This document shows, one piece after another, positions 2,077 to 46,343 of a stretch of 64,000 bases of DNA (positions are counted from its first letter, which is position 1; each line of letters opens with the position of its first letter). The position numbers and the translations under genes are program-made. The notes beneath the pieces are model-generated. The model did not search any database. It was not told the DNA's origin and saw only the letters and a program-made list of their open reading frames with translations. The DNA is from Gammaproteobacteria bacterium. GTDB taxonomy: Bacteria > Pseudomonadota > Gammaproteobacteria > Eutrophobiales > Eutrophobiaceae. The stretch is from assembly GCA_965243115.1 (NCBI GenBank), contig CBDEUD010000003.1:3328689-3392688 (forward strand), written 5' to 3'.

Positions 2077-4101
2077 TCAGCCAGCCATATTGTCATGGAT
2101 TTCCAGGCTGAATTCCTTGATGCGCGCTATCTCGTCGCGTATCTCCGCGGCCCGTTCGAATTCCAGGTCGCGGGCATGCCGGTACATCTGCTCTTCCAAC
2201 TGGCTGATTTTCTTCAGCAGCAGGTCCGGGGGCATATCCATATAGCCGGGTTTTTGCTCAGCCACTTTCCCATAACGGCGCGCCTGGCCGCGCTGGTCGC
2301 GGTAAGCCCCTTCAAGGATATCGGTGACTGCCTTGCGGATGCCCTGGGGCGTGATGCCGTGCAGGTCGTTAAATCGCTGTTGTTTATCCCGGCGCCGGTC
2401 GGTTTCCCGCACCGCGCGCTCGATGGAACCGGTTACCGTGTCGGCATACATGATGGCCTTGCCGTTGATGTTGCGGGCGGCGCGTCCTACGGTCTGGATC
2501 AAGGTGGTCTCGGATCGTAAAAAACCTTCCTTGTCGGCGTCCAGGATCGCCACCAGGGATACTTCCGGCATGTCCAGCCCTTCCCGCAGCAGGTTAATCC
2601 CGACCAGCACGTCGAAATTCCCCAGGCGCAGGTCGCGGATGATCTCAACGCGTTCCACCGTGTCGATATCGGAGTGCAGGTAACGCACCTTGACGCCGTG
2701 CTCGGCCAGGTAGTCGGTCAGGTCCTCCGCCATGCGCTTGGTCAGGGTGGTGACCAGCACCCGTTCGTTGCGTTGCTCGCGCAGACGGATTTCCGACAAC
2801 AGGTCGTCCACCTGCGTGGCGACCGGCCGGATTTCCACATCCGGGTCGACCAGGCCCGTGGGACGCACCAGCTGTTCGATAACCTCATCGGACCGGTCAC
2901 GCTCATAAGGACCCGGCGTTGCCGATACGAACACCGTTTGCGGCGCCAGGTATTCAAACTCGTCGAAACGCAGCGGCCGGTTGTCCAGGGCGCAGGGCAG
3001 GCGGAAACCGTATTCCACCAGGTTCTCCTTGCGCGAACGGTCGCCGCGGTACATGGCGCCCAACTGGGGCACGGTGACGTGGCTTTCATCCACCACCAGC
3101 AAGGCATTGTGGGGCAGATAGTCAAACAGGGTCGGCGGCGGTTCACCGGGCCGCCTGCCGGACAGGTGCCGGGAATAGTTCTCAATGCCCGTGCAGTAAC
3201 CGATTTCCATCATCATCTCCAGGTCAAACCGGGTACGTTGCTCCAGGCGTTGAAATTCGACCAGCTTGTTGGCCTGGCGTAATTGCTCCAGGCGTTCCGC
3301 CAGTTCCTCCCTGATGGCTTCTATGGCGTCCAGGATAATCTGGCGTTCGGTGACGTAATGGGTCTTGGGGTGAATGGTGATGCGCGGCACCTGTTTGTGT
3401 ATCTCACCGGTCAGCGGATCAAAGATCGAAATCGATTCGATCTCATCGTCGAACAACTCGACCCGGATCCCCTCGCGTTCCGACTCGGCCGGATAGACGT
3501 CGATAATGTCGCCTCGCACGCGGTACGTGGCGCGGTGCAGTTCCACCTCGTTACGGGTATATTGCATCTCGGCAAGCCGGCGCAGGATAAAGCGCTGGTC
3601 CATGCGCTCGCCCCGGTCCAGGTGCAACACCATCTTCAGGTAGGCCTGGGGATCGCCCAGGCCGTATATGGCGGAAACGGTGGCAACGATGATGGTGTCC
3701 GGACGCTCCAGCAACGCCTTGGTGGCGGACAGGCGCATCTGTTCGATGTGCTCATTGATGGATGCGTCCTTCTCGATGTACGTGTCCGTGGAAGGGACGT
3801 AAGCCTCCGGCTGGTAATAATCGTAGTAAGACACGAAGTACTCCACGGCGTTGCCCGGGAAGAACTCCCGCATTTCGCCGTATAACTGCGCGGCCAGGGT
3901 CTTGTTCGGCGCCAGGATCAGCGTGGGACGCTGTATCTTCTCGACCAGGTTGGCGATGGTAAAGGTCTTGCCGGAACCCGTCACGCCCAGCAGCGTCTGC
4001 TGTGCAATCCCGGACCCGATTGAATGGTATAATGCTTTGATAGCCTCGGGTTGATCGCCCGCAGGAGAAAAGTCAGCCTGTAATTTGAATTTCTTTGTCA
4101 T
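2077..4101 (-). CDS. uvrB: Excinuclease ABC subunit B
   Basis: The 706-aa ORF carries [10 protein letters not shown] (Walker A), helicase motifs and a C-terminal UVR motif ([13 protein letters not shown]). I place the start at the internal ATG ([18 protein letters not shown]...), which matches normal UvrB N-termini. Confidence 0.95.
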
Positions 4102-9056: not shown

Positions 9057-9909
9057 GCAAGGCCTTGCTTATCTCCTGCTCCATTGAATATGGCGGTCGC
9101 CAGGCGAGAGTCTCTATTGTGTGATCGATATCCAGAGTCAAAGAACCGGTCAGTTTGCTCACTGCCTGTGTTTTACCGGCAATCAAACCCGCCAGGTACA
9201 TCAGGGAATAGGGAACAGGGATAATCAAGCCGGTTTTATCCAGACTCTTGTACATCATTTTGATCAGATCCGCCAGCGTTACGGTGATATGGTCGCTTAC
9301 CAGAAACGTCCGGTTATATGAATTCTCATTGGCCAGACAGGTAATGATGAGATCACACAAGTTGTTGACCGAACAAAAAGAACGTTCCGATTTGATTGAA
9401 CCCAGCGGCATGACCGGCAACTTCCTCACTAACCTGGTGAGAGTCCTGAAGCTCCCTTTGGCGCCGGCACCGTAAACCAGTGGCGGTCTTATTATCGTCA
9501 GGTTTACACCGGTATTCTTAAACGCCCGTTTCAACCCTTGTTCCGCTTCCATTTTTGAAACCGAATAAGCATCATAGGGGTTATAAGGACTGTGAGCGTC
9601 AAAAGGAGATGCCCCGGAGAATTCTCCCAGGACCCCTGCGGAACTCACGAAAACGAAGTGTCTTATATTGGAACCGGCGGCTTTTTCGGCAAGGTTCAGG
9701 GTGTAAGAGAGGTTGGTTTTCACGCTCTTTTTCAAATGCACCCTTGCCGCCAGATGGATTATCGCGACAAATTCCTCCCAGTCGGACGGGTAGATGAAGT
9801 CCTCGTCAATTCTTTCCAGGGCCAGGTAATCAAAATCGGCCTCGTCGAGATGTCTGACCAGGTGCGAACCGATGAAGCCGCGCGCTCCGGTTATCGCTAC
9901 CTTGCGCAT
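9037..9909 (-). CDS. NAD-dependent epimerase/dehydratase (SDR)
   Basis: ITGARGFIGSHL Rossmann motif and YSVSK (YxxxK). Noticeably AT-richer than the flanks by eye. Confidence 0.8.
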   Translation of the reverse strand: MRKVAITGARGFIGSHLVRHLDEADFDYLALERIDEDFIYPSDWEEFVAIIHLAARVHLKKSVKTNLSYTLNLAEKAAGSNIRHFVFVSSAGVLGEFSGASPFDAHSPYNPYDAYSVSKMEAEQGLKRAFKNTGVNLTIIRPPLVYGAGAKGSFRTLTRLVRKLPVMPLGSIKSERSFCSVNNLCDLIITCLANENSYNRTFLVSDHITVTLADLIKMMYKSLDKTGLIIPVPYSLMYLAGLIAGKTQAVSKLTGSLTLDIDHTIETLAWRPPYSMEQEISKALHDDQIV

Positions 9910-13885: not shown

Positions 13886-15016
13886 ATGGACCGGATAAAA
13901 ATCGCCCATCTGACCAGTGTCCATCCGCGCGCCGATACCCGGATTCGGGTAAGGGAAGTGGGCTCGCTCGCACAAGCCGGACCGGACCCGGTGGTTTTGT
14001 TCGTCCAGGACGGCAACGGCGACGCCATTGAAGCGGGCGGCAAGGTACGCATCATCGACACCGGCCCGCCGCCCGGCGCACGGCTGGCAAGGATGACCCT
14101 GGGAGTCTGGCGTATGGGGCGGGCGGTTCAACGGTTGCGTCCGCAGGTGGTGCACTTTCACGACCCGGAGCTGATGATACCGGGCCTGGTTTTGAAGTGT
14201 CTCGGCTACCGGGTGATCTACGATGTGCATGAGGACCTGCCGCGCCAGGTACTGACGAAATACTGGATACCTGTCCCGGCCAGGCGCCCGGTCGCCTGGA
14301 TGGTATCGGCGATGGAATGGCTTGCCGCGCGCGTATTCGATGCGATTGTACCCGCAGAGCCGAAAATCGCCGGGCGCTTTCCGCCCCACAGGACCGTGCT
14401 GGTACAGAATTTCCCCATCCTGGATGAGCTGGTCATACCGGAGGCGACACCCTACGACAGCAGACCTCCTCACTTTGCTTACATCGGCGGGATCGCCCGA
14501 ATTCGCGGGATCTTCGAAATGACCGCTGCATTGACCCGGTGTGGAACAGAAGCTGTCCGGTTGTGTCTCGCCGGGGTATTTCAACCGCCGGGCCTGAAAA
14601 CGGAAATTGAGGCAGCGCCAGGCTGGCGCCAGGTCGAGTTTTCCGGCTGGGCGGACCGGGCGCAGGTGGCGGACATACTGGGCGGCGTCCGGGCCGGCCT
14701 GGCTATCCTGCACCCAACCCCGAAATACCCGGATGCCTATCCCACCAAGATGTTCGAATACATGTCCGCCGGCCTGCCGGTGATCGTATCCGATTTTCCC
14801 CTGTGGCGGCGTATCGTGGACGATGCGGGATGCGGCCTGCTGGTAGACCCGATGGATCCGCAGGCCATTGCCGGCGCCATGCAATGGATACTGGACCATC
14901 CTGCAGAGGCCGAAGCCATGGGCCGGCGCGGGCGGGCGGCGGTCGAAAAAGACTACAACTGGGAGACCGAAGCGGAAAAACTGGTTACGCTTTACAATAA
15001 ACTGCTTCTTGACTGA
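13886..15016 (+). CDS. Glycosyltransferase group 1 (GT4)
   Basis: GT-B pattern; KMFEYMSAGLPVIVSDFPLWRRIVDDAGCGLLVDP contains the ExxxxxxxE-type region. Confidence 0.8.
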   Translation: MDRIKIAHLTSVHPRADTRIRVREVGSLAQAGPDPVVLFVQDGNGDAIEAGGKVRIIDTGPPPGARLARMTLGVWRMGRAVQRLRPQVVHFHDPELMIPGLVLKCLGYRVIYDVHEDLPRQVLTKYWIPVPARRPVAWMVSAMEWLAARVFDAIVPAEPKIAGRFPPHRTVLVQNFPILDELVIPEATPYDSRPPHFAYIGGIARIRGIFEMTAALTRCGTEAVRLCLAGVFQPPGLKTEIEAAPGWRQVEFSGWADRAQVADILGGVRAGLAILHPTPKYPDAYPTKMFEYMSAGLPVIVSDFPLWRRIVDDAGCGLLVDPMDPQAIAGAMQWILDHPAEAEAMGRRGRAAVEKDYNWETEAEKLVTLYNKLLLD

Positions 15017-17703: not shown

Positions 17704-18741
17704 TTATTTCTTGTAATTCATATGATAAGCAGCATTCGCGCGGATGTCCCGTTCGGAAGCCTGCAACACCTTCAGCACGCGTATTCCCTCGTTGCCGTCG
17801 GTACGGCAGCCCGTCTGGCCCGCAATACACTCCAGGAAATGGGCCAGCTCCTGCCGTAACGGCTCTGCCCGGGTTACGGCTACGGCCTCGGGCTCGGCCT
17901 TGTCCGGCGTGGGCAGGCTGTCTTTCCAGACTATCCTGTGCCGGTAGACCAGCAGTTTCCGCTCCCACTCCAGGGTATCGTCAAACACCGCCATGCCCTC
18001 GTCGCCCACGACGACGAGCCTCTGCTCCTTGTACGGGTGCAGCCAGGAGACAAACACATGGGCGTTCTCTCCGCCGGGAAAAGACATGTGGGTAGTGGTC
18101 ACATCCGCCACCTGCGAGTGCAGGAAAAAACTGCCGATGGCTGAAACCCGGTCGGGTTCGTCACCGACCAGTGACAGGATCATGGAAACGTCATGGGGCG
18201 CGAAGCTCCAGAGTATGTTCTCCTCGCGCCGGACCTTGCCCAGGTTCAGCCGGTGGGAATAGATATGGCGCAGGCGGCCCAGTTCTCCTTGGACGACCAG
18301 TTCCTTCAACCGCACAAAAGCCGGGTGGTACTGCAACAGGTGGCCCACCATCAGCACCCGCCCTTCCCTTTCCGACAACTCGTTCAACTCCTCGGCGCTG
18401 TCCACGTCCAGGGCGACGGGTTTCTCGACGAACACGTGTTTGCCCGCCGACAACGCCTGCCCGGCCATGGCCGAATGGGTGAGGGCAGGTGTGGCGATGG
18501 CGACCGCGTCGATGCCCGGGTCCCGGAGCACATCTTCGAATGCAGGGGTGCTGACGTCATAGCGCGATCCGAATTGCTGCGCCAGTTCCGGGTCCGTATC
18601 GCAGACCGCGGCCAGCGCGCCCAGGTCGGAAAAGTTGCGCACCAGGTTCCTGCCCCAGTAACCGCAGCCGATGACGGCGACACGTGACGGTAATTGTTCA
18701 ACCATATCAGTCAAGATCCTGTCTTCAGCCGGTATAGGCAC
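17704..18741 (-). CDS. wbpB: Gfo/Idh/MocA oxidoreductase (WbpB-like UDP-GlcNAcA 3-dehydrogenase)
   Basis: [17 protein letters not shown] Rossmann motif, Gfo/Idh/MocA pattern and operon context. Confidence 0.75.
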
Positions 18742-18761
18742 CCGACATACATGAAAGTTCG

Positions 18762-20066
<1,305 letters not shown>

Positions 20067-20095: not shown

Positions 20096-21382
20096 TCAAA
20101 GCCTTATCACCCGCACGCCGGCAGGCGCGGCGTCCCGGTCCAGCCTGCCCTTGACGTCGTAGACGATCCCTCCTTGATGCTTGAGCAGGCCGCGCAGCCA
20201 ATCCCAGCCCTTGTCCAGGTAAACACCATGGGGCACGGCGAGTATCACGGCATCAGCGGGCCGCAACGACTGCAGGCCGGCCAGTTCAAGCTGGTATTCG
20301 TTGCGCACCTTGTCCGGGTCCGCGTGCACGTCATTGACCTGTAGCGGTACGTTGAACTGTTTCAGTTCATCGATGATGTCGATCACCCGGGTATTGCGGG
20401 TGTCGCCGACATTCTCCTTGAAGGACAGGCCCAGTACGGTAACCAGGCAGTTTTCCGGTGAGTAACCGGCCTGCAGCAATGCTTTCACGACCTGCGCGGC
20501 GACATAGTTGCCCACGCCGTCGTTGATATTGCGGGCGGTCAGGATCAGGTCCGGGATATAGCCGCTCCGGGCCGCCCGGTAGGCCAGGTAATACGGGTCA
20601 ATGCCGATGCAGTGGCCGCCTACCAGTCCCGGCGAGAAGCGCTGGAAATTCCATTTCGTCGCAGCCGCATCCAGCACGTCGTTGGTATCGATATCCAGCT
20701 TGTCGAATATCAGCGCCAGCTGGTTCATCAAGGCAATATTGACGTCCCGCTGGATGTTCTCGACGACTTTCGTTGCTTCCGCGACCTTGATGGAGGACGC
20801 CTCGTACACACCTGCCGTTACCACGCTCTCGTAGACGTGGCGGATGACGTCCAGCGCGGCGCGGTCCTGTGCGGCTACGATTTTCACGATACTGGTGAAC
20901 GTATGCTCCCGGTCGCCCGGGTTGATGCGCTCCGGGGAATAACCCAGGTGAAAGTCGCGCCCGCAAACCAGGCCCGATTCCCGTTCCAGGATGGGCGCGC
21001 AGATCTCTTCCGTGGCGCCCGGGTAAACGGTGGATTCATAGACGATGATATCGCCCTTGCCGAGCACGCGCCCAAGTAACTCCGAGGCGGCGGTCAGAGG
21101 TCCCATGTCCGGGTTTTTTGCGTCGTTTATGGGGGTGGGCACCGCGACGATATGAAAATCGGCTTGCTCAAGCTGCTTGCTGTCCGTGGTAAAGGCAATC
21201 TGCGCCGCCGCCAGGTCGTCAGGGGCAACCTCGCCGGTGCTTTCACGTCCCTGTTCCAGTTCGGCGATGCGCCGTTCATCGATATCAAAACCGATCACCT
21301 CACCGAGACGGCCGAACGCGACCGCGACCGGCAAACCGACGTAGCCCATGCCGATAACCGATATTTTCCTGTCTTTATTCAT
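20096..21382 (-). CDS. wbpA: UDP-N-acetyl-D-glucosamine 6-dehydrogenase type nucleotide-sugar dehydrogenase (WbpA/TviB-like)
   Basis: ISVIGMGYVGLPVAVAF, YESTVYPGATEE, YSPERINPGD and GLVGGHCIGIDPYYL. Confidence 0.8.
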   Translation of the reverse strand: MNKDRKISVIGMGYVGLPVAVAFGRLGEVIGFDIDERRIAELEQGRESTGEVAPDDLAAAQIAFTTDSKQLEQADFHIVAVPTPINDAKNPDMGPLTAASELLGRVLGKGDIIVYESTVYPGATEEICAPILERESGLVCGRDFHLGYSPERINPGDREHTFTSIVKIVAAQDRAALDVIRHVYESVVTAGVYEASSIKVAEATKVVENIQRDVNIALMNQLALIFDKLDIDTNDVLDAAATKWNFQRFSPGLVGGHCIGIDPYYLAYRAARSGYIPDLILTARNINDGVGNYVAAQVVKALLQAGYSPENCLVTVLGLSFKENVGDTRNTRVIDIIDELKQFNVPLQVNDVHADPDKVRNEYQLELAGLQSLRPADAVILAVPHGVYLDKGWDWLRGLLKHQGGIVYDVKGRLDRDAAPAGVRVIRL

Positions 21383-21414: not shown

Positions 21415-21496
21415 AATTTGGGGTCAGAGTAAAAACCTTGAAAATTTCTCCTCCCGGTACTTGTCATCAACAAGGTTTTTACTCTGACCCCAAATT
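21415..21496. repeat. 26-bp perfect inverted repeat with a 30-nt spacer, between two co-directional glycan genes
   Basis: AATTTGGGGTCAGAGTAAAAACCTTG (21415-21440) is the exact reverse complement of 21471-21496. Confidence 0.9.
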
Positions 21497-24833: not shown

Positions 24834-24846
24834 TTCTCTGACATCC

Positions 24847-25311
24847 ATGTACCGCAGGCGCCTGATTACGCTTCTCATCCTCGCACTGGCCGCATTCGGC
24901 GCCGGGGCGGACAAGATGCCGCTCCTGATCTCCTGTCATGGCTTGCCGAACACCGATGCAGCCGTAGTCGCGACCCTGTGCGACGCGCTGGTGTCCGAAC
25001 TGGACGAGCGTGAACCGGGCCGCACGATCCGGCGTAGCGCCGCGCCGGACCCACTCCCCAAGCGGGCCTGGGACGTGGTCCTCAAGGTCATTCGCACCGA
25101 AAACTACCACTGGGAAGCACATTTGACATGGAGCAAGGCGAAGCGCAGGAATAACGCCGATCCGACAATCGGGCCGGTCGTAGAGATCTTCGGCATGGAC
25201 GCACCGCTGGGCCCCGGGGCTTACTCACATTTCGTCCGCAGTCTTCTGAAAGTGAGCAAGCCGGCATTCCTGGCGTCCCCTAGGGGAGTCGAACCCCTGT
25301 TGCCGCCGTGA
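24847..25311 (+). CDS. Small exported hypothetical protein (signal peptide), directly downstream of the protease
   Basis: MYRRRLITLLILALAAFGAGA... starts 14 nt after the protease stop. Its 3' end overlaps tRNA-Glu on the other strand. No family recognised. Confidence 0.45.
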   Translation: MYRRRLITLLILALAAFGAGADKMPLLISCHGLPNTDAAVVATLCDALVSELDEREPGRTIRRSAAPDPLPKRAWDVVLKVIRTENYHWEAHLTWSKAKRRNNADPTIGPVVEIFGMDAPLGPGAYSHFVRSLLKVSKPAFLASPRGVEPLLPP

Positions 25312-29789: not shown

Positions 29790-30734
29790 ATGAACAAATC
29801 CATCCTGTCCCTGTGCGGCGGCGTGGGCGGAGCGAAACTGGCGCACGGACTCAGCAAAACAGTCAGCCCGGACGACCTTCTCATCGTGGTCAATACCGGT
29901 GACGACTTTGAACACCTGGGACTGCACATCTCGCCCGACCTGGATACGGTCATGTACACGCTGGCGGGCGTGGCGGACCCGGAGCGGGGCTGGGGCATCG
30001 CCGGCGAGACCTGGAACTTCATGGAGGCGATCGCCGGCTTCGGCGGCCTGGATTGGTTCAGGCTGGGGGACAAGGACCTCGCCACCCACCTGTACCGGAC
30101 CCGGATGCTGGAACAGGGACAGGGACTGGCGCAGGTTACCCGCGCACTGTGCCGTTCCTTCGGCATAGAACACCGAATTGTTCCCATGACCGGCGACCCG
30201 TTGCGCACGCGTGTGGTCACCGACCGGGGGACCCTGCCCTTCCAGGATTATTTCGTGCGCCAGGGTAGCCGGCCCGGGGTGCAGTCAATTGAATTCAGCG
30301 GCGCCGGGCAAGCCCGCGTACACCCGGATTTCGCGGCGATGCTCAACAGCAGTGAGCTGGTCGCAGTCATCCTGTGCCCGTCCAACCCGTTCCTGAGCAT
30401 CGACCCGATCCTGTCCCTTGGAGGCGTGCGTTCAGACCTGCGGTCCGCCGCCGCACCCGTTGTCGCCGTCTCACCCATCGTCGGCGGCAAGGCCCTGAAA
30501 GGCCCCGCGGCCAAGATAATGGACGAACTGGGAATGCCGCCCGGCAACCTGTCAATCGCCGAATATTACCGTGATTTCCTGGATGGGATCGTTATCGACA
30601 CCGGCGACCGGCATGAAACGCAGGCAATCGAGCAACTGGGGATCAGGGTGAAACTCACCAATACCGTTATGCGCTCCCGGCAGGACAGGATAGACCTGGC
30701 TGAAACCTGCCTGGAATTTGCGATCAGTTTTTAG
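29790..30734 (+). CDS. cofD: 2-phospho-L-lactate transferase (CofD/FbiA)
   Basis: LCGGVGGAKLAHGL, VNTGDDFEHLGLHISPDLDTVMYTLAG and CPSNPFLSIDPIL. Start re-picked at MNKSILSL. Confidence 0.85.
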   Translation: MNKSILSLCGGVGGAKLAHGLSKTVSPDDLLIVVNTGDDFEHLGLHISPDLDTVMYTLAGVADPERGWGIAGETWNFMEAIAGFGGLDWFRLGDKDLATHLYRTRMLEQGQGLAQVTRALCRSFGIEHRIVPMTGDPLRTRVVTDRGTLPFQDYFVRQGSRPGVQSIEFSGAGQARVHPDFAAMLNSSELVAVILCPSNPFLSIDPILSLGGVRSDLRSAAAPVVAVSPIVGGKALKGPAAKIMDELGMPPGNLSIAEYYRDFLDGIVIDTGDRHETQAIEQLGIRVKLTNTVMRSRQDRIDLAETCLEFAISF

Positions 30735-30818
30735 TTTCTGGTTTTTAGTGGCTGGACTGATAACTCCTTGAATGCTCCATATCCAATACCCCTTACTAAA
30801 AACCAGAAACTAAAAACT
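30726..30818. repeat. 24-bp perfect inverted repeat (45-nt spacer) whose arms hold the stop codons of both convergent genes
   Basis: AGTTTTTAGTTTCTGGTTTTTAGT (30726-30749) is the reverse complement of 30795-30818. The cofD TAG is at 30732-30734 and the hydroxylase stop is at comp(30817-30819). Confidence 0.9.
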
Positions 30819-37716: not shown

Positions 37717-37890
37717 AGGGTGGGATGGTATTTTAAGGACCCGCTGTAAATACATCCCTGTACGTTCATTGCGCCCATCCCTGGGCGCAACCCTTCGGGC
37801 GGCTAACGCCGTGCAAATCGGCTGTCCTGCCGATTTGTTACCGTCAGCCATCCCTGGCTGACGATAGTCCTTAAAATACCATCCCACCCT
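37717..37890 (-). ncRNA. Candidate structured RNA E1: a 24-bp outer stem enclosing four hairpins with GGA-containing loops
   Basis: The arms 37717-37740 and 37867-37890 are perfect reverse complements. Minus-strand hairpins are CAGCCA-GGGA-UGGCUG, CAAAUCGGC-AGGACA-GCCGAUUUG, GCGCCCA-GGGA-UGGGCGC and UACA-GGGA-UGUA. The structure is certain; transcription and function are not shown. Confidence 0.45.
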
Positions 37891-37937
37891 CCAGATCGTG
37901 AACAATGCTGACGATTTTGGATAAGCGTCCCGACAGC

Positions 37938-40678: not shown

Positions 40679-42430
40679 GTGAATCGAGAAGCGACGACCA
40701 CTGATAATACAGTAGCCCAAAATTTAGCCGAATTCTCCAGTCTGTCTGAAGCGTTGGATTATGCGGCTGCGGGTAGTACCGGGTGCAATTTTTACGACGC
40801 GAAAGGTAAGCTCAGCGTCGTTTTGCCTTATGGCGAATTGCAGCGACAGGCCAGGGTTGCCGCCGGGCGCCTGCTCAGCCTGGATTTGAAACGCGGTGAT
40901 CACATTGCCCTGGTGGCCGATACCCACCCTGACTTCATTATCCTGTTCTTTGCCTGCCAGTACATCGGGCTTGTGCCGTTCGCCATGCCGATACCGCTTA
41001 ATCTCGGCAGCCACGCGATTTACGTCCAGCAACTCAAGGGCCTGCTGACCAGCGGCAAGGCAAAAGTAGCCATCGCGCATAAGGAATTCATCAGCTTTCT
41101 CGAGGAAGCCGCGGCCGACAACGACGACCTCGAATGGCTCGGCACACCGGAACAACTGTCCGATATTGCCCCTTCGGAACGCCCGCTCGAGCCGAGCAGG
41201 CCCGAAGAGCCGGCATACCTGCAGTTTACCTCGGGCAGCACCCGCGCACCGCAGGGCGTAGTCATTACCGGCAAGGCGGTAATGAGCAACCTGCAAGGGA
41301 TCACGAGGACCGGACTGAAAGTACACGAGGGCGACCGCTGCGCATCCTGGCTGCCGTTCTACCACGATATGGGCCTGGTCGGGTTCGTGCTGGGTCCGGT
41401 TGCCTCCCAGTTGTCGGTCGACTACCTGCGCACGCGGGATTTTGCCATACGTCCGCTGCAGTGGCTGCGCCTGATCAGCAGGAACCGCTGCACCATTGCG
41501 TTCTCGCCACCGTTCGGTTACGAACTCTGCGCCCGCAGGATCCGCAGCGCGGACCTGCAACAGCTTGACCTGAGCTGCTGGCGTATCGCCGGCATCGGCG
41601 CGGAGATGCTGCGCTCCAGCACATTCGAAGCGTTTGCCGCAACCATGGCCGAAACCGGTTTCAGCTCCAACGCATTCCTGCCCTGCTACGGCCTGGCGGA
41701 AGCATCGCTTGCCGCGACCTTTTCGGAACTGGACCGCGGCCTGGACGTCATGGCGGTCGACGCCCTGACCATGGCCGAACGCGGTATCGCGGTGCGCGTC
41801 CGGTCGGACAGCCGCAAGGTAAACGAAATCGTCAATTGCGGACGCGCCCTGCCCGATCACGAGATCAGGATCGTCGATAACGAAGGGGAGATCCTGCCCG
41901 ACCTGCGCCTCGGCCGGGTACTGGTAAAAGGCCCCAGCCTGATGCACGGCTACCTCAACGACCAGGAGTCGACAGACCGGGTGATGCTGGAAAACGGCTG
42001 GCTCGACACCGGCGACCTGGGCTACCTGTTCGCGCAGAACCTCTACCTGACCGGACGGCGCAAGGACATCATCATCGTCAACGGCAGGAACATCCGCGCC
42101 CAGGACCTCGAAGAGATCGCCGAAGGCATGGACGGCATCAGGATGGGCGAATCTTCCGCATTCGATATCGAAACCGACGAAGGCGGGCAAATCGTCGTAC
42201 TGGTGGTCGAATGCCGTCTCACGGAGAGCACGGCCAGGCAATCGCTGGTCAAGCACCTGCAGCGCAAAGTCTACGAAGGCTTCGGGATTTACTGCTACGT
42301 AGACCTGGTCGAGCCGCACACCCTGCCGCGCACCTCGTCCGGCAAGCTGTCCCGCGTCGCCGCGCGCAAGGGCTTCACGGACCGGGTAGACCTGGCCCAC
42401 GCCATCACTTCACAAGCTGAAACCGCGTAA
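40679..42430 (+). CDS. Fatty acyl-AMP ligase / acyl-ACP synthetase (adenylate-forming superfamily)
   Basis: LQFTSGSTRAPQGV (AMP motif I), YGLAEA, GDLGY and SSGKLSR. GTG start after a 224-bp AT-rich gap. Confidence 0.85.
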   Translation: MNREATTTDNTVAQNLAEFSSLSEALDYAAAGSTGCNFYDAKGKLSVVLPYGELQRQARVAAGRLLSLDLKRGDHIALVADTHPDFIILFFACQYIGLVPFAMPIPLNLGSHAIYVQQLKGLLTSGKAKVAIAHKEFISFLEEAAADNDDLEWLGTPEQLSDIAPSERPLEPSRPEEPAYLQFTSGSTRAPQGVVITGKAVMSNLQGITRTGLKVHEGDRCASWLPFYHDMGLVGFVLGPVASQLSVDYLRTRDFAIRPLQWLRLISRNRCTIAFSPPFGYELCARRIRSADLQQLDLSCWRIAGIGAEMLRSSTFEAFAATMAETGFSSNAFLPCYGLAEASLAATFSELDRGLDVMAVDALTMAERGIAVRVRSDSRKVNEIVNCGRALPDHEIRIVDNEGEILPDLRLGRVLVKGPSLMHGYLNDQESTDRVMLENGWLDTGDLGYLFAQNLYLTGRRKDIIIVNGRNIRAQDLEEIAEGMDGIRMGESSAFDIETDEGGQIVVLVVECRLTESTARQSLVKHLQRKVYEGFGIYCYVDLVEPHTLPRTSSGKLSRVAARKGFTDRVDLAHAITSQAETA

Positions 42431-42468
42431 CATCAAGCCGGTTACCCGCCCGGGAAATCTGCACTGAA

Positions 42469-43377
42469 ATGACGGAGCAGGTGGCGCTCACCGGCGCCAC
42501 GGGATTTATCGGACAGAACCTCCTGGCCGCACTGGAAAAATCAGGTTACCGCACCCGCGCACTGACCCGCAGGCCGCGTCCCGGTTCCGGACCCGTATCC
42601 TGGATCCACGGCGACCTGGATAACCCGCAAGCCCTGGACAAACTCGTCGACGGATGCACAGCCGTGATCCACTGCGCCGGCACGGTCAGGGGAAACTCAC
42701 TAAATGACTTCCTGGAAATCAACCTGAAGGGAACCGAAAACCTGCTGGAAGCGGCCGCTAAACCGGCCTCCCCGCCCAGGTTCCTGTTACTCTCCTCACT
42801 CGCCGCCAGGTACCCCGACTATTCCTGGTATTCCCGCAGCAAATCCATGGCGGAAGCACTGCTGATGTCGGACAAATACACCGGAATGTCCCGCACCATA
42901 TACCGCCCCAGCGCGGTCTACGGCCCCGGCGACAGGGAAATGCGCCCCCTGTTCCGCCTCATGCGCCGCGGTTACCTGGTCGGACCCCGCATACCCGGCA
43001 ACAGGATCAGCCTCATCCACGTCGACGACCTGGTACGCGCCATCCTGCAATGGCTGCCGGCAAAACAGGCACAAGGCACCTTCGAACTGGACGACGGCGC
43101 CACACAAGGATACACATGGGAAGACATCACGGCCATCGCTTCCGACACCTGGCAGCGCCCCGTAACCCACATCCGGGTCCCGGTCACATTGCTGAGAGGC
43201 ATTGCCCACGTCAACCTGCTCCTGGCCCAGACGTTCCGTTACCGGGCGATGCTCACCCCCGGAAAAGTTAACGAAATCACCCACGAAAACTGGGTATGCG
43301 ATAATACGCCGTTGACGAACTGCCTGGGATGGAAACCGGAAATTAGTCTGTCTGATTCAATCAAGACAGTTATATAA
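42469..43377 (+). CDS. NAD(P)-dependent SDR (epimerase/dehydratase fold; CerR-like by context)
   Basis: LTGATGFIGQNL and YSRSK (YxxxK). Confidence 0.7.
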   Translation: MTEQVALTGATGFIGQNLLAALEKSGYRTRALTRRPRPGSGPVSWIHGDLDNPQALDKLVDGCTAVIHCAGTVRGNSLNDFLEINLKGTENLLEAAAKPASPPRFLLLSSLAARYPDYSWYSRSKSMAEALLMSDKYTGMSRTIYRPSAVYGPGDREMRPLFRLMRRGYLVGPRIPGNRISLIHVDDLVRAILQWLPAKQAQGTFELDDGATQGYTWEDITAIASDTWQRPVTHIRVPVTLLRGIAHVNLLLAQTFRYRAMLTPGKVNEITHENWVCDNTPLTNCLGWKPEISLSDSIKTVI

Positions 43378-43391
43378 TAGCGATAGTGCCA

Positions 43392-43498
43392 GACGGCTTC
43401 ATGTAAGCGATTCAGGACTATCATCCGCAGGGAAAGCGGATGGTAAGCGTACATGGACGTATTTACAGCGGGTCCTGAATCGCTTACATGAAGCCGTC
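43392..43498 (+). ncRNA. Candidate structured RNA E2, a short homologue of E1: a 27-bp outer stem around GGA hairpins
   Basis: GACGGCTTCATGTAAGCGATTCAGGAC (43392-43418) is the reverse complement of 43472-43498. Inner hairpin CAUCCGC-AGGGAAA-GCGGAUG. The 3' core CGTACATGGACGTATTTACAGCGGGTCCT is nearly identical to E1 read on the minus strand. Confidence 0.45.
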
Positions 43499-43526
43499 CC
43501 CCCGGAACCATATTGGAGATCGTTGT

Positions 43527-43781
43527 ATGCCCGCTAGCTATGAGGAAATTCTTGAAAAAGTCACCAGTGAGTTGTCAAAGCTTACTCCGTCCGGGGTAGA
43601 GCTAAGCGAAGATTCCGAACTGGTCACGGAACTAGGCCTGGATTCATTCAAAGTCCTGGACCTGCTCATGGACATCGAAGACGAGTTCGACATCTCCATG
43701 CCGGTCAACCTCCTTGCCGACGTGCACACCGTAAAAGACCTGGCTGACCGGATTCATTCCGTAGTCAATTCATCAACCTAG
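43527..43781 (+). CDS. Acyl carrier protein
   Basis: 84 aa with LGLDSFKVLDLLMDIEDEF (phosphopantetheine Ser in a DS motif). Start re-picked at MPASYEEIL. Confidence 0.85.
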   Translation: MPASYEEILEKVTSELSKLTPSGVELSEDSELVTELGLDSFKVLDLLMDIEDEFDISMPVNLLADVHTVKDLADRIHSVVNSST

Positions 43782-43790
43782 CCACCGGAA

Positions 43791-44972
43791 ATGAGCCTGT
43801 TCGACAAATTTCAACCCCTGGCGCAGGACCGCCACACACTGCTGGGCCAGGGAATCGACCCGTTCGGCGCGCCCATCGAAGAGATCTACTCACCGACGGA
43901 AGCCCTCATAAACGGGCGCCGGACGATCCTGGCCGGCACCAACAACTACCTGGGCCTCACCTTCGATGAACAATGCCTGGACGCCGCCCATGCCGCGCTC
44001 GACGAACAGGGCACCGGGACCACCGGATCCAGGATGGCCAACGGCAGCTTCGCCGGGCACCGCGCACTGGAACAGGAGATCGCCGCGTTTTACGAATGCG
44101 ACAAAGCCATCGTGTTCACCACCGGCTACCAGGCAAACCTGGCGGTGATCTCCGGCCTGGCGAACAATGAAGACACCATCGTCATAGACGCGGACAGCCA
44201 TGCCAGCATCTACGACGGCTGCCGCTTGAGCGGCGCGGATATCGTGCGCTTCCGCCACAATAACCCCGACGACCTGCACAAACGGCTGAAACGCCTGGGC
44301 GAGCGCGCCGCGAACGCACTGGTGATTATCGAAGGCATCTACAGCATGCTCGGCGACAAGGCGCGTATCAGGGAGATAATCGAGGTGAAAAACGCCCATC
44401 GCGCACTGTTGCTGGTGGATGAGGCCCACTCCCTGGGTGTCCTGGGGGAACGGGGCAGGGGCCTGGTCGAGGAGGCCGGGGTCATCAGCGAGGCGGATTT
44501 CATCGTCGGCACCTTCAGTAAAAGCCTGGCCAGTACCGGAGGGTATTGCGTCAGCAACCACCCGCAGCTTGATTTCATACGATACGCCAGCAGGCCCTAC
44601 ATCTTCACCGCATCGCCCTGCCCGTCCGTGATCGCTTCCACGCGCCAGGCGCTGAAGCGGGTGGAAAACGGCGCCGACCTGCGCGCCCGGCTGTGGCGCC
44701 ACGCACACCGCCTGTACCGGCACCTGCTCGATGCGGGCTACGAACTGGGGCCCGAACCCTGCCCGGTGATCGCGGCCCTGCTGGACACCCGGGAACAGGC
44801 CCTGGCGCTATGGCGCGGCCTGCATGAACACGGCATCTACGTGAACCTGATCTTCCCGCCGGCCACGCCCGGAGGCAAATCGCTGGTGCGCATCAGCGTC
44901 AGCGCCGCGCACACCGACGAACAAATCGATACGATTTGCCAGGCTTTCTCGGCATTGTCCACATCTATATAA
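43791..44972 (+). CDS. Alpha-oxoamine synthase, serine palmitoyltransferase-like
   Basis: GTTGSRMANGS, DEAHSLGVLG and GTFSKSLAS (PLP Lys). The Spt call over BioF/Kbl rests on the ACP/ligase/SDR context. Confidence 0.75.
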   Translation: MSLFDKFQPLAQDRHTLLGQGIDPFGAPIEEIYSPTEALINGRRTILAGTNNYLGLTFDEQCLDAAHAALDEQGTGTTGSRMANGSFAGHRALEQEIAAFYECDKAIVFTTGYQANLAVISGLANNEDTIVIDADSHASIYDGCRLSGADIVRFRHNNPDDLHKRLKRLGERAANALVIIEGIYSMLGDKARIREIIEVKNAHRALLLVDEAHSLGVLGERGRGLVEEAGVISEADFIVGTFSKSLASTGGYCVSNHPQLDFIRYASRPYIFTASPCPSVIASTRQALKRVENGADLRARLWRHAHRLYRHLLDAGYELGPEPCPVIAALLDTREQALALWRGLHEHGIYVNLIFPPATPGGKSLVRISVSAAHTDEQIDTICQAFSALSTSI

Positions 44973-45041
44973 TTTCGGGCAGGTTGGGATGGCATATATA
45001 CAGTGCCGGAAATTTCTGAACCCCTCTCAAAGACCAGATTA

Positions 45042-46343
45042 ATGGCGGACGACGGCCTGTTCCGCCGGGTTTTCATGAACTCCGCCATGCTCACCGCGGG
45101 CAAGATGTATACCGCCCTGGCCGGCCTGCTCTACCTTGCCCTTGCCACCCGCGCCCTGGGTGCGCATGATTTCGGCGTACTCATCCTCATCCATGCCTAC
45201 GCGGTCGCAGTACGGGATTTTGTCACGCTGAAAACCTCGCAGTGCGTGGTAAGGTACGGCGCCATCTGCCTGGACAACAATGCACGGGCTGATTTTCAGA
45301 AACTGGTCAAATTTACCACGCTGCTCGACCTCGGCTTCTGTGCCGCAGGCACGCTAGTGGGCATGCTGGTCGTCCCCGTAGTCGGGCCGCACTTCGGCGT
45401 CACACCGGAACTGGTTCCTGTCGCAACCATCTACTGCTTCATGATCCTGTTCAACTTCAAGGCAACCTCCCTGGGCCTGCTGCGCCTGTTCAACCGCTTC
45501 GACCTGGTGGCCCTCATGCTCATGGTGGTTCCGACGATCCGCGTGGCCGGCGCCTGTGCCGCGTATTTCTTCTACCAGCACATCAGCGCATTCCTCCTGT
45601 TCTGGTTTCTCGCCGGCGCGGTCCAGTGCCTGGCTACCGTTTACTTCGGCTGGCGCGAATTCAGGCGCCAGGGCTTCAGCAGGGATATGGACCTCGGGCT
45701 CGATAACCTGACCCGGCCGCACGAGGGGATCTGGCCTTTTATCTGGTCTTCACACGTTCACAGGACCCTGCATGTTTCGACCATACACGTCGCAACACTC
45801 GTCGTCGGCTTCCTGCTGGGGCCGGTAGGCGCCGGCCTGTTCAAGATTGCCCAGGAATTCTCGAGCGTATTGCTCAAGCCTGCGCAACTGTTCAACGAGA
45901 CGGTTTACCCGGAAATGGCAAAGATCGCGGTCAGCAGAAACTATACGCGCCTTTGGGGCGTCATCACCCGCACGGCGCTGGTGGCAGGCGCCATTGCCGC
46001 CGTTATCCTGTTGCTGATTTTCCTGTTCGGCCAGTCCCTGTTGGGCCTGTTCTTCGGCGCAGAGTACGGCAACGCCTACGAGGTAATGGTGCTGCTCATG
46101 ATCGCGGCTGCCGTCACCATGGCCACGTTCGCCCTGGACCCGGCGCTGTACTCCATAGGCCGCCCCGATATCTCCATGTATATCCGGATCTTCACCAGCA
46201 CCCTGCATATCGCGGCCATGTTCCTGCTGCTGCCGAACATCGGCCTGGCCGGCGCCGGCATCGCCGCCATTGCCGGCAGCGTGTCAACGGCCCTGCTGCT
46301 GCTGTTCTTTACCCACTCACTGGTAAGAAATAAATCCGCGTGA
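45042..46343 (+). CDS. Wzx/MOP-superfamily flippase-like membrane protein
   Basis: 12-14 hydrophobic segments. N-terminus FRRVFMNSAMLTAGKMYTALAGLLYLALATRALG is typical of polysaccharide/lipid flippases. Confidence 0.7.
   Translation: MADDGLFRRVFMNSAMLTAGKMYTALAGLLYLALATRALGAHDFGVLILIHAYAVAVRDFVTLKTSQCVVRYGAICLDNNARADFQKLVKFTTLLDLGFCAAGTLVGMLVVPVVGPHFGVTPELVPVATIYCFMILFNFKATSLGLLRLFNRFDLVALMLMVVPTIRVAGACAAYFFYQHISAFLLFWFLAGAVQCLATVYFGWREFRRQGFSRDMDLGLDNLTRPHEGIWPFIWSSHVHRTLHVSTIHVATLVVGFLLGPVGAGLFKIAQEFSSVLLKPAQLFNETVYPEMAKIAVSRNYTRLWGVITRTALVAGAIAAVILLLIFLFGQSLLGLFFGAEYGNAYEVMVLLMIAAAVTMATFALDPALYSIGRPDISMYIRIFTSTLHIAAMFLLLPNIGLAGAGIAAIAGSVSTALLLLFFTHSLVRNKSA

Follow-up and report, generated by a model that had tools for sequence, protein, structure and literature searches.

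We analysed two related elements, E1 and E2, in a 64-kb stretch of DNA from a Gammaproteobacteria bacterium (contig CBDEUD010000003.1; hereafter the window), and found that they belong to a family of intergenic hairpins with covarying stems, the copies of which come and go between related genomes, occur nested and in clusters, and have had their cores inverted in place. There is little doubt that both elements belong to a hairpin repeat of an uncultured gammaproteobacterial lineage which is dispersed, duplicates and is polymorphic, and that neither is an operon-specific regulator, and the E2 site was found not to be conserved along with the sphingolipid operon in which E2 lies. The conserved core of the repeat is tentatively predicted, from its sequence, to be a CsrA-binding RNA in transcripts of the GGA sense. 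The whole reading that we favour, a mobile hairpin cassette that would present CsrA-type sites when transcribed in the GGA sense, has in our judgement about an even chance of being right.

E2 lies in the gene order fatty acyl-AMP ligase, SDR/epimerase, E2, acyl carrier protein (ACP) and serine palmitoyltransferase (spt), the last of which was called by an NCBIfam equivalog model (617 bits, cut-off 500). Its arms (43392-43418 and 43472-43498) are 27 nt each, are 100% complementary and enclose a 53-nt centre, just as an earlier note on this DNA had read them, and E2 does sit between the SDR gene and the ACP/spt genes. Compared with the orthologues in the related loci L009, L011, L012 and L013, all differences in the E2 arms are compensated, apart from one U.G pair; the octamer TTCAGGAC at the inner end of the 5' arm is the most conserved arm part family-wide. 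In hairpin 1 the GGA is located at 43431-43433 and the third pair is a U.G wobble, and in hairpin 2 (43449-43462) the GGA is located at 43455-43457 (Table 1). The predicted folding energy of E2 is -67.8 kcal/mol (z = -12.7 against shuffled controls) and that of E1 is -108.2 kcal/mol (z = -14.5), a predicted stability far beyond chance for both elements. The 3' arm of E2 ends 16 nt upstream of the ACP Shine-Dalgarno sequence (GGAG, 43515-43518; ATG at 43527), which is left unsequestered in the predicted fold, and further GGA motifs are present at this Shine-Dalgarno sequence and directly past the 3' arm. The E2 arms also contain TGTAAG and CTTACA (window 43403-43408 and 43482-43487), 73 nt apart, which correspond to the two halves of the GacA/UvrY box; the likeness was dismissed as probably chance, the halves not being kept in the orthologous arms of L011, L014 and L020.

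E1 is located after an NTP_transf_3 gene at a convergent gene junction, and aligning E2 on the plus strand with E1 on the minus strand reproduced what the earlier note had described. The two elements have in common AGGAC-TATC(A/G)TC, GGTAA, the AGGGA hairpin-1 loop and a 30-nt 3' segment identical at 28 of 30 positions, and their hairpin-1 stems, CAUCCGC/GCGGAUG in E2 and GUCAGCC/GGCUGAC in E1, are swapped and each perfectly paired. Both elements are co-directional, in the GGA sense, with their upstream gene in the window, again as noted before. E2 had been regarded as a shorter copy of E1; the core is indeed the same, but the short form is the basic unit and E1 consists of this unit plus a 73-nt, three-hairpin module (module M). 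The module is absent from the E1 orthologues in L009, L012 and L013, all of the short form, and in L013 it is the E2 orthologue that has the long form. We located it in the window E1, in the E2 copy of L013 and in the L009 copies called E1b and 3b; copy 3a of L012 and of L013 also has it, but there it forms part of the 3' arm and not of the flipped core. Across six module copies, the hairpins M1 and M3 carry GGA loops on covarying stems.

For the family as a whole, a covariance model (R1) was built from six short copies, and the syntenic region was taken from ten relatives through orthologues of the flanking SDR protein (92-67% identity); the sampled copies are biased to one syntenic region. 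Model R1 together with motif scans yielded about 38 copies in about 300 kb from 15 assemblies. Scans of public genomes and metagenomes with over-strict 18-21-mers (GTATTTACAGCGGGTCC...) gave 3 and 5 loci and under-count the family; most copies found later carry GTATTCACAGCG. Independent copies were obtained by scanning for the shared 3' segment in other Gammaproteobacteria metagenome-assembled genomes (MAGs) and metagenome contigs (L002/L003/L006, L004, L005 and L007/L008), and the results showed that these copies each have their own outer stem and hairpin-1 stem, with the loops and the 3' segment in common.

In an alignment of 30 copies, 94.6% of the cells held standard pairs and 30 of the 39 pairs showed changes on both sides, values of covariation that none of 500 shuffles reached; sliding the pairing partners as a control brought pairing down to 32-43%. 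RNAalifold independently recovered the outer stem and hairpin 1. Hairpin 1 showed both-side changes in 7 of its 10 pairs with the GGA of the loop retained, whereas hairpin 2 is invariant and shows no covariation, and its exact pairing register is not settled by covariation because it never varies. These results bear out the earlier claim of a structured family with compensatory changes. Searches against Rfam, at gathering and at permissive (E <= 10) thresholds, gave no family for the window, E1, E2 or the L016 cluster, the CsrB, CsrC, RsmX, RsmY and RsmZ models included, and blastn searches with E2 (plasmids) and E1 (phages) gave no match. A scan of viral contigs for the invariant core gave a single weak partial match. 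No published description matches the E1/E2 family, and its cargo is undescribed.

All copies were found to be intergenic, on both strands, often right after stop codons or between convergent genes, and identical cores occur in unrelated settings (parB-atpI, amidohydrolase-esterase and convergent gene ends). They also cluster. In the 21 kb of locus L016 there are at least eight copies, five of which follow one another in the orientations - + - + +, and L007 contains three in one 600-nt gap, one of them inverted and one a 5'-truncated tandem duplicate with flank. The L007 copies lie between aminotransferase and antiporter-like genes (A, 852-965, minus; B, 1147-1256, plus; C, about 1315-1390, plus); between copies A and B the arms share about 65% identity, and in each copy they pair perfectly, the 5'-truncated copy C repeats the 3' flank of copy B, and A and C share a 14-nt palindromic insertion (UGGGCCGCAUGCGG) within the otherwise invariant tail. 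In L009, copy 3a is nested in the arm of 3b, and the 3b hairpin has since decayed.

Comparison of orthologous gaps showed insertion polymorphism, with filled, empty and remnant states at the E1, E1b, E2 and third sites. Two copies are present in the E1 gap of L009, L012 and L013, and none in that of L014 and L015. E1b is complete in L009, L012 and L013, antisense to E1; the window retains 17 of 20 positions of its distal arm, the other arm and the core being gone. The lone arm at 37910-37929 hinted at an inverted target duplication upon insertion, which we rejected in favour of deletion because a full copy is present in L009, L012 and L013 and the window groups with L009. The third gap is filled by one or two copies, in either orientation, in L009, L011, L012, L013 and L015, and only arm ends and the tail of module M remain there in the window. 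We saw no target-site duplications flanking the copies, no U-tract after the 3' arm in any copy examined, and no promoter or terminator at E1 and E2. The insertion of cores into pre-existing palindromes beside AGGAC was also considered and discarded, as 244 kb contained no 'empty' E-type hairpin. At 6-45 nt downstream of the 3' arm, some copies of different organisms have the short motif (T)ACAATCAG(R) in common; its TACAAT is -10-like.

The earlier note had proposed that E2 could act as a module controlling ACP/spt expression, for instance by attenuation, and had held that random orientation relative to transcription would fit a DNA-level element rather than an RNA. Attenuation is not indicated, as there is no terminator-like U-tract. 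L015, L016 and L019 have no element between their SDR and ACP genes, L014 and L020 have a flipped core there and L018 another cassette, and between co-directional genes the copies are sense at 2 sites and antisense at 5, which is the random orientation that the note had named. The empty and flipped E2 sites together with the random orientation therefore indicate that E2 is not a conserved regulator of ACP/spt, and its effect on these genes, if any, would be incidental to the landing place of the copy.

The outer stems of E1 and E2 are unalike, as had been noted, but arms across the family form related subfamilies (E1 with 3b and 3a; E2 with E1b and the L014/L020 copy), and the same arms recur at several loci of L016; the whole hairpin is therefore the duplicating unit. 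At the E2 site, one arm position is C, T or G among close relatives, each fully compensated and with no intermediate. We also found orthologous arms enclosing the core in opposite orientations at the E2 site (L014 and L020 versus the rest), at E1b (L018 and L019 versus L009, L012 and L013) and at 3a (L011 and L015 versus L009, L012 and L013). Core orientation is constant within clades, amounting to about one flip per site over the sampled tree. In the E2-site hairpin of L018 (10918-11102) the core has been replaced: its 71-nt arms are 100% complementary, and the 43-nt centre holds a GGAACUCC-UGGGA-GGAGUUCC hairpin. The added arm sequence belongs to a third repeat family (GGGGACACAATACTTAATTC) that colonised the hairpin symmetrically and of which 12 copies are present in 21 kb of L018 and none in the window or any other locus. 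Between orthologous copies, the rate of change of the arms and of the core does not exceed that of SDR third-codon positions, and the few core differences recur at the same three positions. From this observed pattern of compensated changes, flips and symmetrisation, we infer that one arm is copied onto the other at the DNA level, by intramolecular template switching or arm-to-arm recombination; such copying would keep the arms perfect, permit drift, and now and then flip or replace the centre.

The core, AGCGUACA-N-GGA-N-GUAUU-Y-ACAGCG (DNA form AGCGTACA-N-GGA-N-GTATT-Y-ACAGCG), is asymmetric and near-invariant in the 30 copies. GGA is found in the loops of two hairpins in the short form and four in the long form. 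The loop of hairpin 1 is always A(G/U)GGA on a variable stem, and both GGA-loop hairpins of module M behave likewise; all four hairpin types (1, 2, M1 and M3) keep A(N)GGA loops, and the stems of hairpin 1, M1 and M3 covary. The consensus of CsrA/RsmA ligands obtained by systematic evolution of ligands by exponential enrichment (SELEX) is RUACARGGAUGU, with ACA and GGA invariant (PMC4347634). Hairpin 2 (GUACAGGGAUGU) agrees with it at 12 of 12 positions in E1, in the copy E3 and in several others, and at 10-11 of 12 in the rest (10 of 12 in E2), and its ACA and GGA are invariant in all copies; the one exact match in the whole window lies inside E1. The geometry of hairpin 2 is also SELEX-typical, with a 6-nt loop and the upstream AC paired with the downstream GU. 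One CsrA dimer bridges sites 10-63 nt apart, with an optimum above 18 (PMC7652899), and the GGA-GGA spacing of 24 nt in the short form falls inside this range. A CsrA-binding role had already been suggested for these elements; the SELEX-consensus hairpin 2 and the spacing lend it concrete support as a prediction, while the random orientation speaks against it. Elsewhere in the window, an 11/12 match to the consensus (GTACATGGATGT; 24841-24852, minus strand) lies just past the end of a 711-aa Ca-binding metalloprotease-like gene; as a candidate small RNA (sRNA) with multiple GGA motifs it was rejected, not being part of such an RNA.

Which strand folds was assessed from the non-Watson-Crick pairs of the outer stem. 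On the GGA strand these are 12 G.U versus 3 A.C (symmetric scoring, de-duplicated; p = 0.035), one G.U pair of hairpin 2 never varies, a U.G pair is present in hairpin 1 of 17 of the 30 copies, and the sense strand folds better than the antisense strand by 0.5-3.7 kcal/mol. The GGA strand as the folding strand is suggestive only: the wobble and strand-energy hints fit a hairpin read as single-stranded DNA (ssDNA) equally, and the folding of the element as ssDNA is also highly significant (z about -13).

The mechanism that we propose is conditional on these predicted sites. Each unit comprises a 24-30-bp outer stem, an asymmetric core of about 53 nt with two GGA hairpins and, optionally, a 73-nt module with a further two. 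Transcription of E1 and E2 of the window in the GGA sense would come from read-through of the upstream genes, and the RNA would fold autonomously into the long stem, presenting two (or four) CsrA/RsmA-type sites of high affinity at a spacing of about 24 nt, with one CsrA dimer predicted to occupy each short unit and two the long form. Since E1 and E2 are both sense to their upstream gene, both would be in the predicted binding state, and a GGA-sense copy would bind or titrate CsrA locally. The long stem would insulate the fold and would probably be an RNase III substrate or a block to 3' exonucleases. A larger extension, which we think unlikely, is that mobile, invertible cassettes plant high-affinity CsrA/RsmA sites transcriptome-wide as a distributed CsrA sponge and plug-in wiring of the Csr regulon, inversion of the core toggling between a GGA (binding) and a UCC (non-binding) transcript and the same DNA copying keeping the arms perfect.

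Several results weigh against CsrA binding as the role of the core. The strand asymmetry is modest, the raw cells of the model-fitted alignment giving 16 G.U versus 7 A.C. The copies show no sense bias relative to neighbouring genes, so that in many of them, by the 2 versus 5 sites, read-through mRNA would contain the UCC strand instead of the GGA strand. The pattern of constant loops on covarying stems holds equally for the complementary strand and for ssDNA, and the match to the CsrA consensus was noticed after the fact. No conserved promoter or terminator accompanies the copies, no mobilising enzyme was identified, and csrA was found neither in the window (tblastn) nor in L001-L008. A literature search for links between CsrA and repetitive extragenic palindromic (REP) or miniature inverted-repeat transposable elements (MITEs) returned nothing relevant.

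The strongest rival, itself doubtful in our view, is a selfish DNA element in which the core hairpins are ssDNA sites of a dimeric HUH/Y1 transposase, similar to the REP-associated tyrosine transposases (RAYTs) or to those of IS200/IS605, and the likeness of the GGA loops to CsrA sites is incidental. The dispersal, nesting, clusters, presence and absence, core flips, cassette replacement and random orientation relative to genes all fit it, at least two other REP-like families occur in the same genomes, and a pair of hairpins alike in loop motif would suit binding by a dimer. The element folds well as ssDNA, which tolerates G.T wobbles, so the strand asymmetry fits too. Transposases such as that of IS608 read helix irregularities, to which the conserved non-Watson-Crick position in hairpin 1 can be likened. 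Against these points, no Y1 or RAYT gene was seen near the copies in the gene tables of the loci or in the scanned open reading frames (ORFs) of the window (most ORFs were not scanned), the sole transposase seen (IS256 type, L014) has no copy next to it, and GTAG/CTAC motifs and target duplications are absent. Copies within one 20-kb stretch point both ways, unlike the replication-strand bias of IS200/IS605, although later flips could blur this. Such an element also leaves unexplained why the optional module has extra hairpins with the same GGA loop on different stems and why the CsrA optimum is matched exactly, at 12 of 12. A structural, REP-like role of the long stem in either orientation, as a block to 3'-to-5' exonucleases, a site of transcription pausing or termination, or a site for DNA-structuring proteins, is improbable as the explanation of the family and is not exclusive of the other models. 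It is consistent with the intergenic placement after stop codons or between convergent genes, with the very low energy of the stem on both strands and with the other long perfect hairpins of the window, which have unrelated loops, but it accounts neither for an asymmetric core that hardly varies nor for conserved GGA loops whose stems covary, and U-tracts are lacking.

Two further explanations assign the family to dedicated RNAs. If the copies were independent multi-copy Csr/Rsm decoy sRNA genes (like RsmX1-5 or RsmZ1-7) with their own promoters and trimmed at the long stem, several GGA hairpins with covarying stems, one of them SELEX-perfect, would be expected, tandem arrays would recall the multi-copy rsm genes, random orientation would be natural for autonomous genes, and the conservation of E3 at one locus in three assemblies would fit; the absence of a conserved upstream promoter or GacA-type box, of an intrinsic terminator and of matches to Rfam Csr/Rsm models at E <= 10, and the atypical density (at least 8 in 21 kb), nesting, truncations and frequent loss make this highly improbable. 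A dedicated cis-regulatory RNA for ACP/spt in the sphingolipid operon, acting by processing, attenuation or a response to CsrA, can hardly be right. E2 is in the mRNA sense close upstream of the ACP Shine-Dalgarno sequence, the sense copy is kept in the five closest genomes (window, L009, L011, L012 and L013), and the GGAs at the Shine-Dalgarno sequence and past the 3' arm are within dual-site reach of CsrA, but the element-free and flipped orthologous sites largely refute it, and the unrelated cassette in L018, the same cores in unrelated contexts, the lack of a U-tract for attenuation and the unsequestered Shine-Dalgarno sequence add to this. For a layout with a conserved centre and a variable stem, we also considered and dropped an integron attC site (no R'/R'' GTTRRRY motif), a retron msr/msd (no reverse transcriptase gene nearby) and a self-cleaving ribozyme (no Rfam match).

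As a hairpin repeat with putative CsrA sites, the family behaves most like the REP doublets called REPINs and the bacterial interspersed mosaic elements (BIMEs), and the design of its core is closest to Csr/Rsm decoy RNAs. REPINs form hairpins, are mobilised by RAYT transposases and have invariant palindromic ends (REP 16-mers) with a looser spacer (PMC3116915). Like them, the copies described here are extragenic hairpins of about 100 nt in both orientations and in tandem clusters with compensatory changes, and they show decaying 'singlet' remnants and presence or absence among close relatives. Unlike in REPINs, the arms vary and the centre is invariant, asymmetric and non-palindromic, the consensus has no GTAG/CTAC, and no RAYT gene was seen in about 300 kb, where one would be unlikely anyway. 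With CsrB/CsrC, RsmX/Y/Z and SELEX ligands the core shares repeated short hairpins, A(N)GGA loops and a spacing suited to a dimer (PMC4347634, PMC7652899), and the number of sites likewise grows by added hairpins. The family differs from these decoys in having no dedicated promoter, rho-independent terminator or Rfam model match, and in its enclosure in a 24-30-bp perfect stem, its many copies in either orientation and its DNA-level dynamics.

Among co-transcribed intergenic MITEs of about 100-150 bp, the Correia/NEMIS elements of Neisseria and the ERIC/IRU elements of enterobacteria form hairpins that can be RNase III substrates, with orientation-dependent effects on mRNA stability; their terminal inverted repeats are conserved among copies and they are flanked by target-site duplications. 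None of them is known to have CsrA-consensus loops. The present family resembles these elements in length and intergenic placement and shares with bacterial MITEs the insertion polymorphism between related genomes, and differs in that the arms vary between loci in the lineage of the window (they are conserved within L016) and that target-site duplications are lacking. A core bracketed by perfect inverted repeats and found in both orientations in orthologous arms recalls invertons, but here both orientations are seen between lineages only, orientation is constant within clades, the 53-bp segment is far shorter than typical, no invertase or recombinase gene lies next to the copies and no internal promoter is evident. 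From intrinsic terminators the stem differs in having no U-tract after it. TwoAYGGAY, reported by Weinberg et al. in 2010, is said to be a candidate RNA of two hairpins with AYGGAY terminal loops. By that description it lacks the long enclosing stem found here and is not described as a dispersed repeat, and its Rfam model gave no match at E <= 10. In the table of the source that lists it, TwoAYGGAY appears as a probable RNA in gut metagenomes, Gammaproteobacteria and Clostridiales (PMC2864571).

The kind of element is known, a dispersed hairpin repeat; it is the cargo that is undescribed and potentially important. Should CsrA bind the core, the family would be the first case of a dispersed, duplicating DNA repeat that carries sites of a global post-transcriptional regulator; it would tie repeat dynamics directly to the Csr/Rsm network and could explain Csr antagonists in lineages without a recognisable CsrB/RsmZ-type sRNA. 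Even without CsrA, the architecture is the reverse of that of REPINs and MITEs, and the family offers a natural system for studying the homogenisation of inverted repeats in bacterial chromosomes. It is also a warning for annotation, as textbook covariation is seen although the copies of this repeat do not serve as conserved regulators of the genes beside them.

Table 1. Coordinates and states of E-family copies and of other repeats in the window and the related loci.
Feature	Position	Strand	Details
E1, long form	37717..37890	-	24-nt perfect arms 37867-37890 and 37717-37740
E1 hairpin 1	37839-37866	-	part of the long form
E1 module M, 73 nt	37766-37838	-	M1 37814-37837, M2 37791-37813, M3 37769-37790
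E1 hairpin 2	37750-37763	-	part of the long form
E1 tail	37741-37749	-	part of the long form
Remnant of third copy, E1b	37910..37929	-	single arm-like stretch GACGCTTATCCAAAATCGTC; from comparison with L009, L012 and L013
E2 5' arm, outer stem, 27 nt	43392..43418	+	perfect complement of 43472-43498
E2 hairpin 1	43419..43445	+	10-bp stem UAUCAUCCGC/GCGGAUGGUA, loop AGGGAAA; from predicted folds
E2 invariant segment AGC-GUACAUGGACGUAU-UUACAGCGG	43446..43471	+	hairpin 2 plus single-stranded tail
E2 3' arm, outer stem, 27 nt	43472..43498	+	complement of the 5' arm
Degenerate remnant of copies at the third site	48878..48920	+	between Cys/Met-PLP and hydrolase genes
SDR-ACP gap: short copy, sense	window, L009, L011, L012		
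SDR-ACP gap: long copy, sense	L013		
SDR-ACP gap: core antisense inside orthologous arms	L014, L020		
SDR-ACP gap: different repeat inside the same arms	L018		
SDR-ACP gap: element-free	L015, L016, L019		14-39 nt
GGGGACACAATACTTAATTC family, further sites	L018 1897-2050 and 5313-5489		
(T)ACAATCAG(R) sites	L002 ~3455-3470; L007 ~1283-1295; L016 ~20480-20500 and ~20750-20770		
AATTCAGGACAACCATAAATT arrays	window 49756-49824 and 50834-50953; L009 ~14120-14200; L011 ~9125-9210; L013 ~18700-18770; L015 ~18390-18580		

Other repeats were found in the same genomes. Two more long, 100% perfect inverted repeats are present in the window (21415-21496 and 30726-30818); their arms are unique and their centres unrelated. 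Arms and spacer measure 26 and 30 nt in one, and 24 and 45 nt in the other, in which the minus strand of the spacer contains three GGA motifs (UUGGAUAUGGAGCAUUCAAGGAGUU). Both may represent further cassettes within hairpins like those of E1 and E2. A second REP-like family consists of units of about 21-27 nt (AATTCAGGACAACCATAAATT) that form direct and inverted arrays immediately past the ends of genes; the number of units varies among relatives, with at least six tandem units of 27-nt period in L015, and the octamer TTCAGGAC is common to this family and to the inner arm ends of E2, E1b, 3a and E3. In L017 (160-260), an IMG/VR contig, a lone hairpin-2/tail motif enclosed only by GGGA/TCCC lies beside a tRNA gene (model score 19.9 bits). 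It directly follows three tandem TGTGGGAGCG units, including GTGGGAGCGGGCCATGCCCGCGAA, which resembles Pseudomonas-type REP sequences.

The lipid cluster around E2 (window 40679-46343) is strictly syntenic in L009-L020, with SDR identities of 67-92%, in the order fatty acyl-AMP ligase, SDR, ACP, serine palmitoyltransferase and a Polysacc_synt-type flippase. Exact-protein look-ups for the SDR of the window and for another protein, P0038, gave no match. Among named homologues, the SDR protein is closest to those of unclassified Gammaproteobacteria MAGs, and those of Nitrosomonas and Nitrosospira are about 52% identical.

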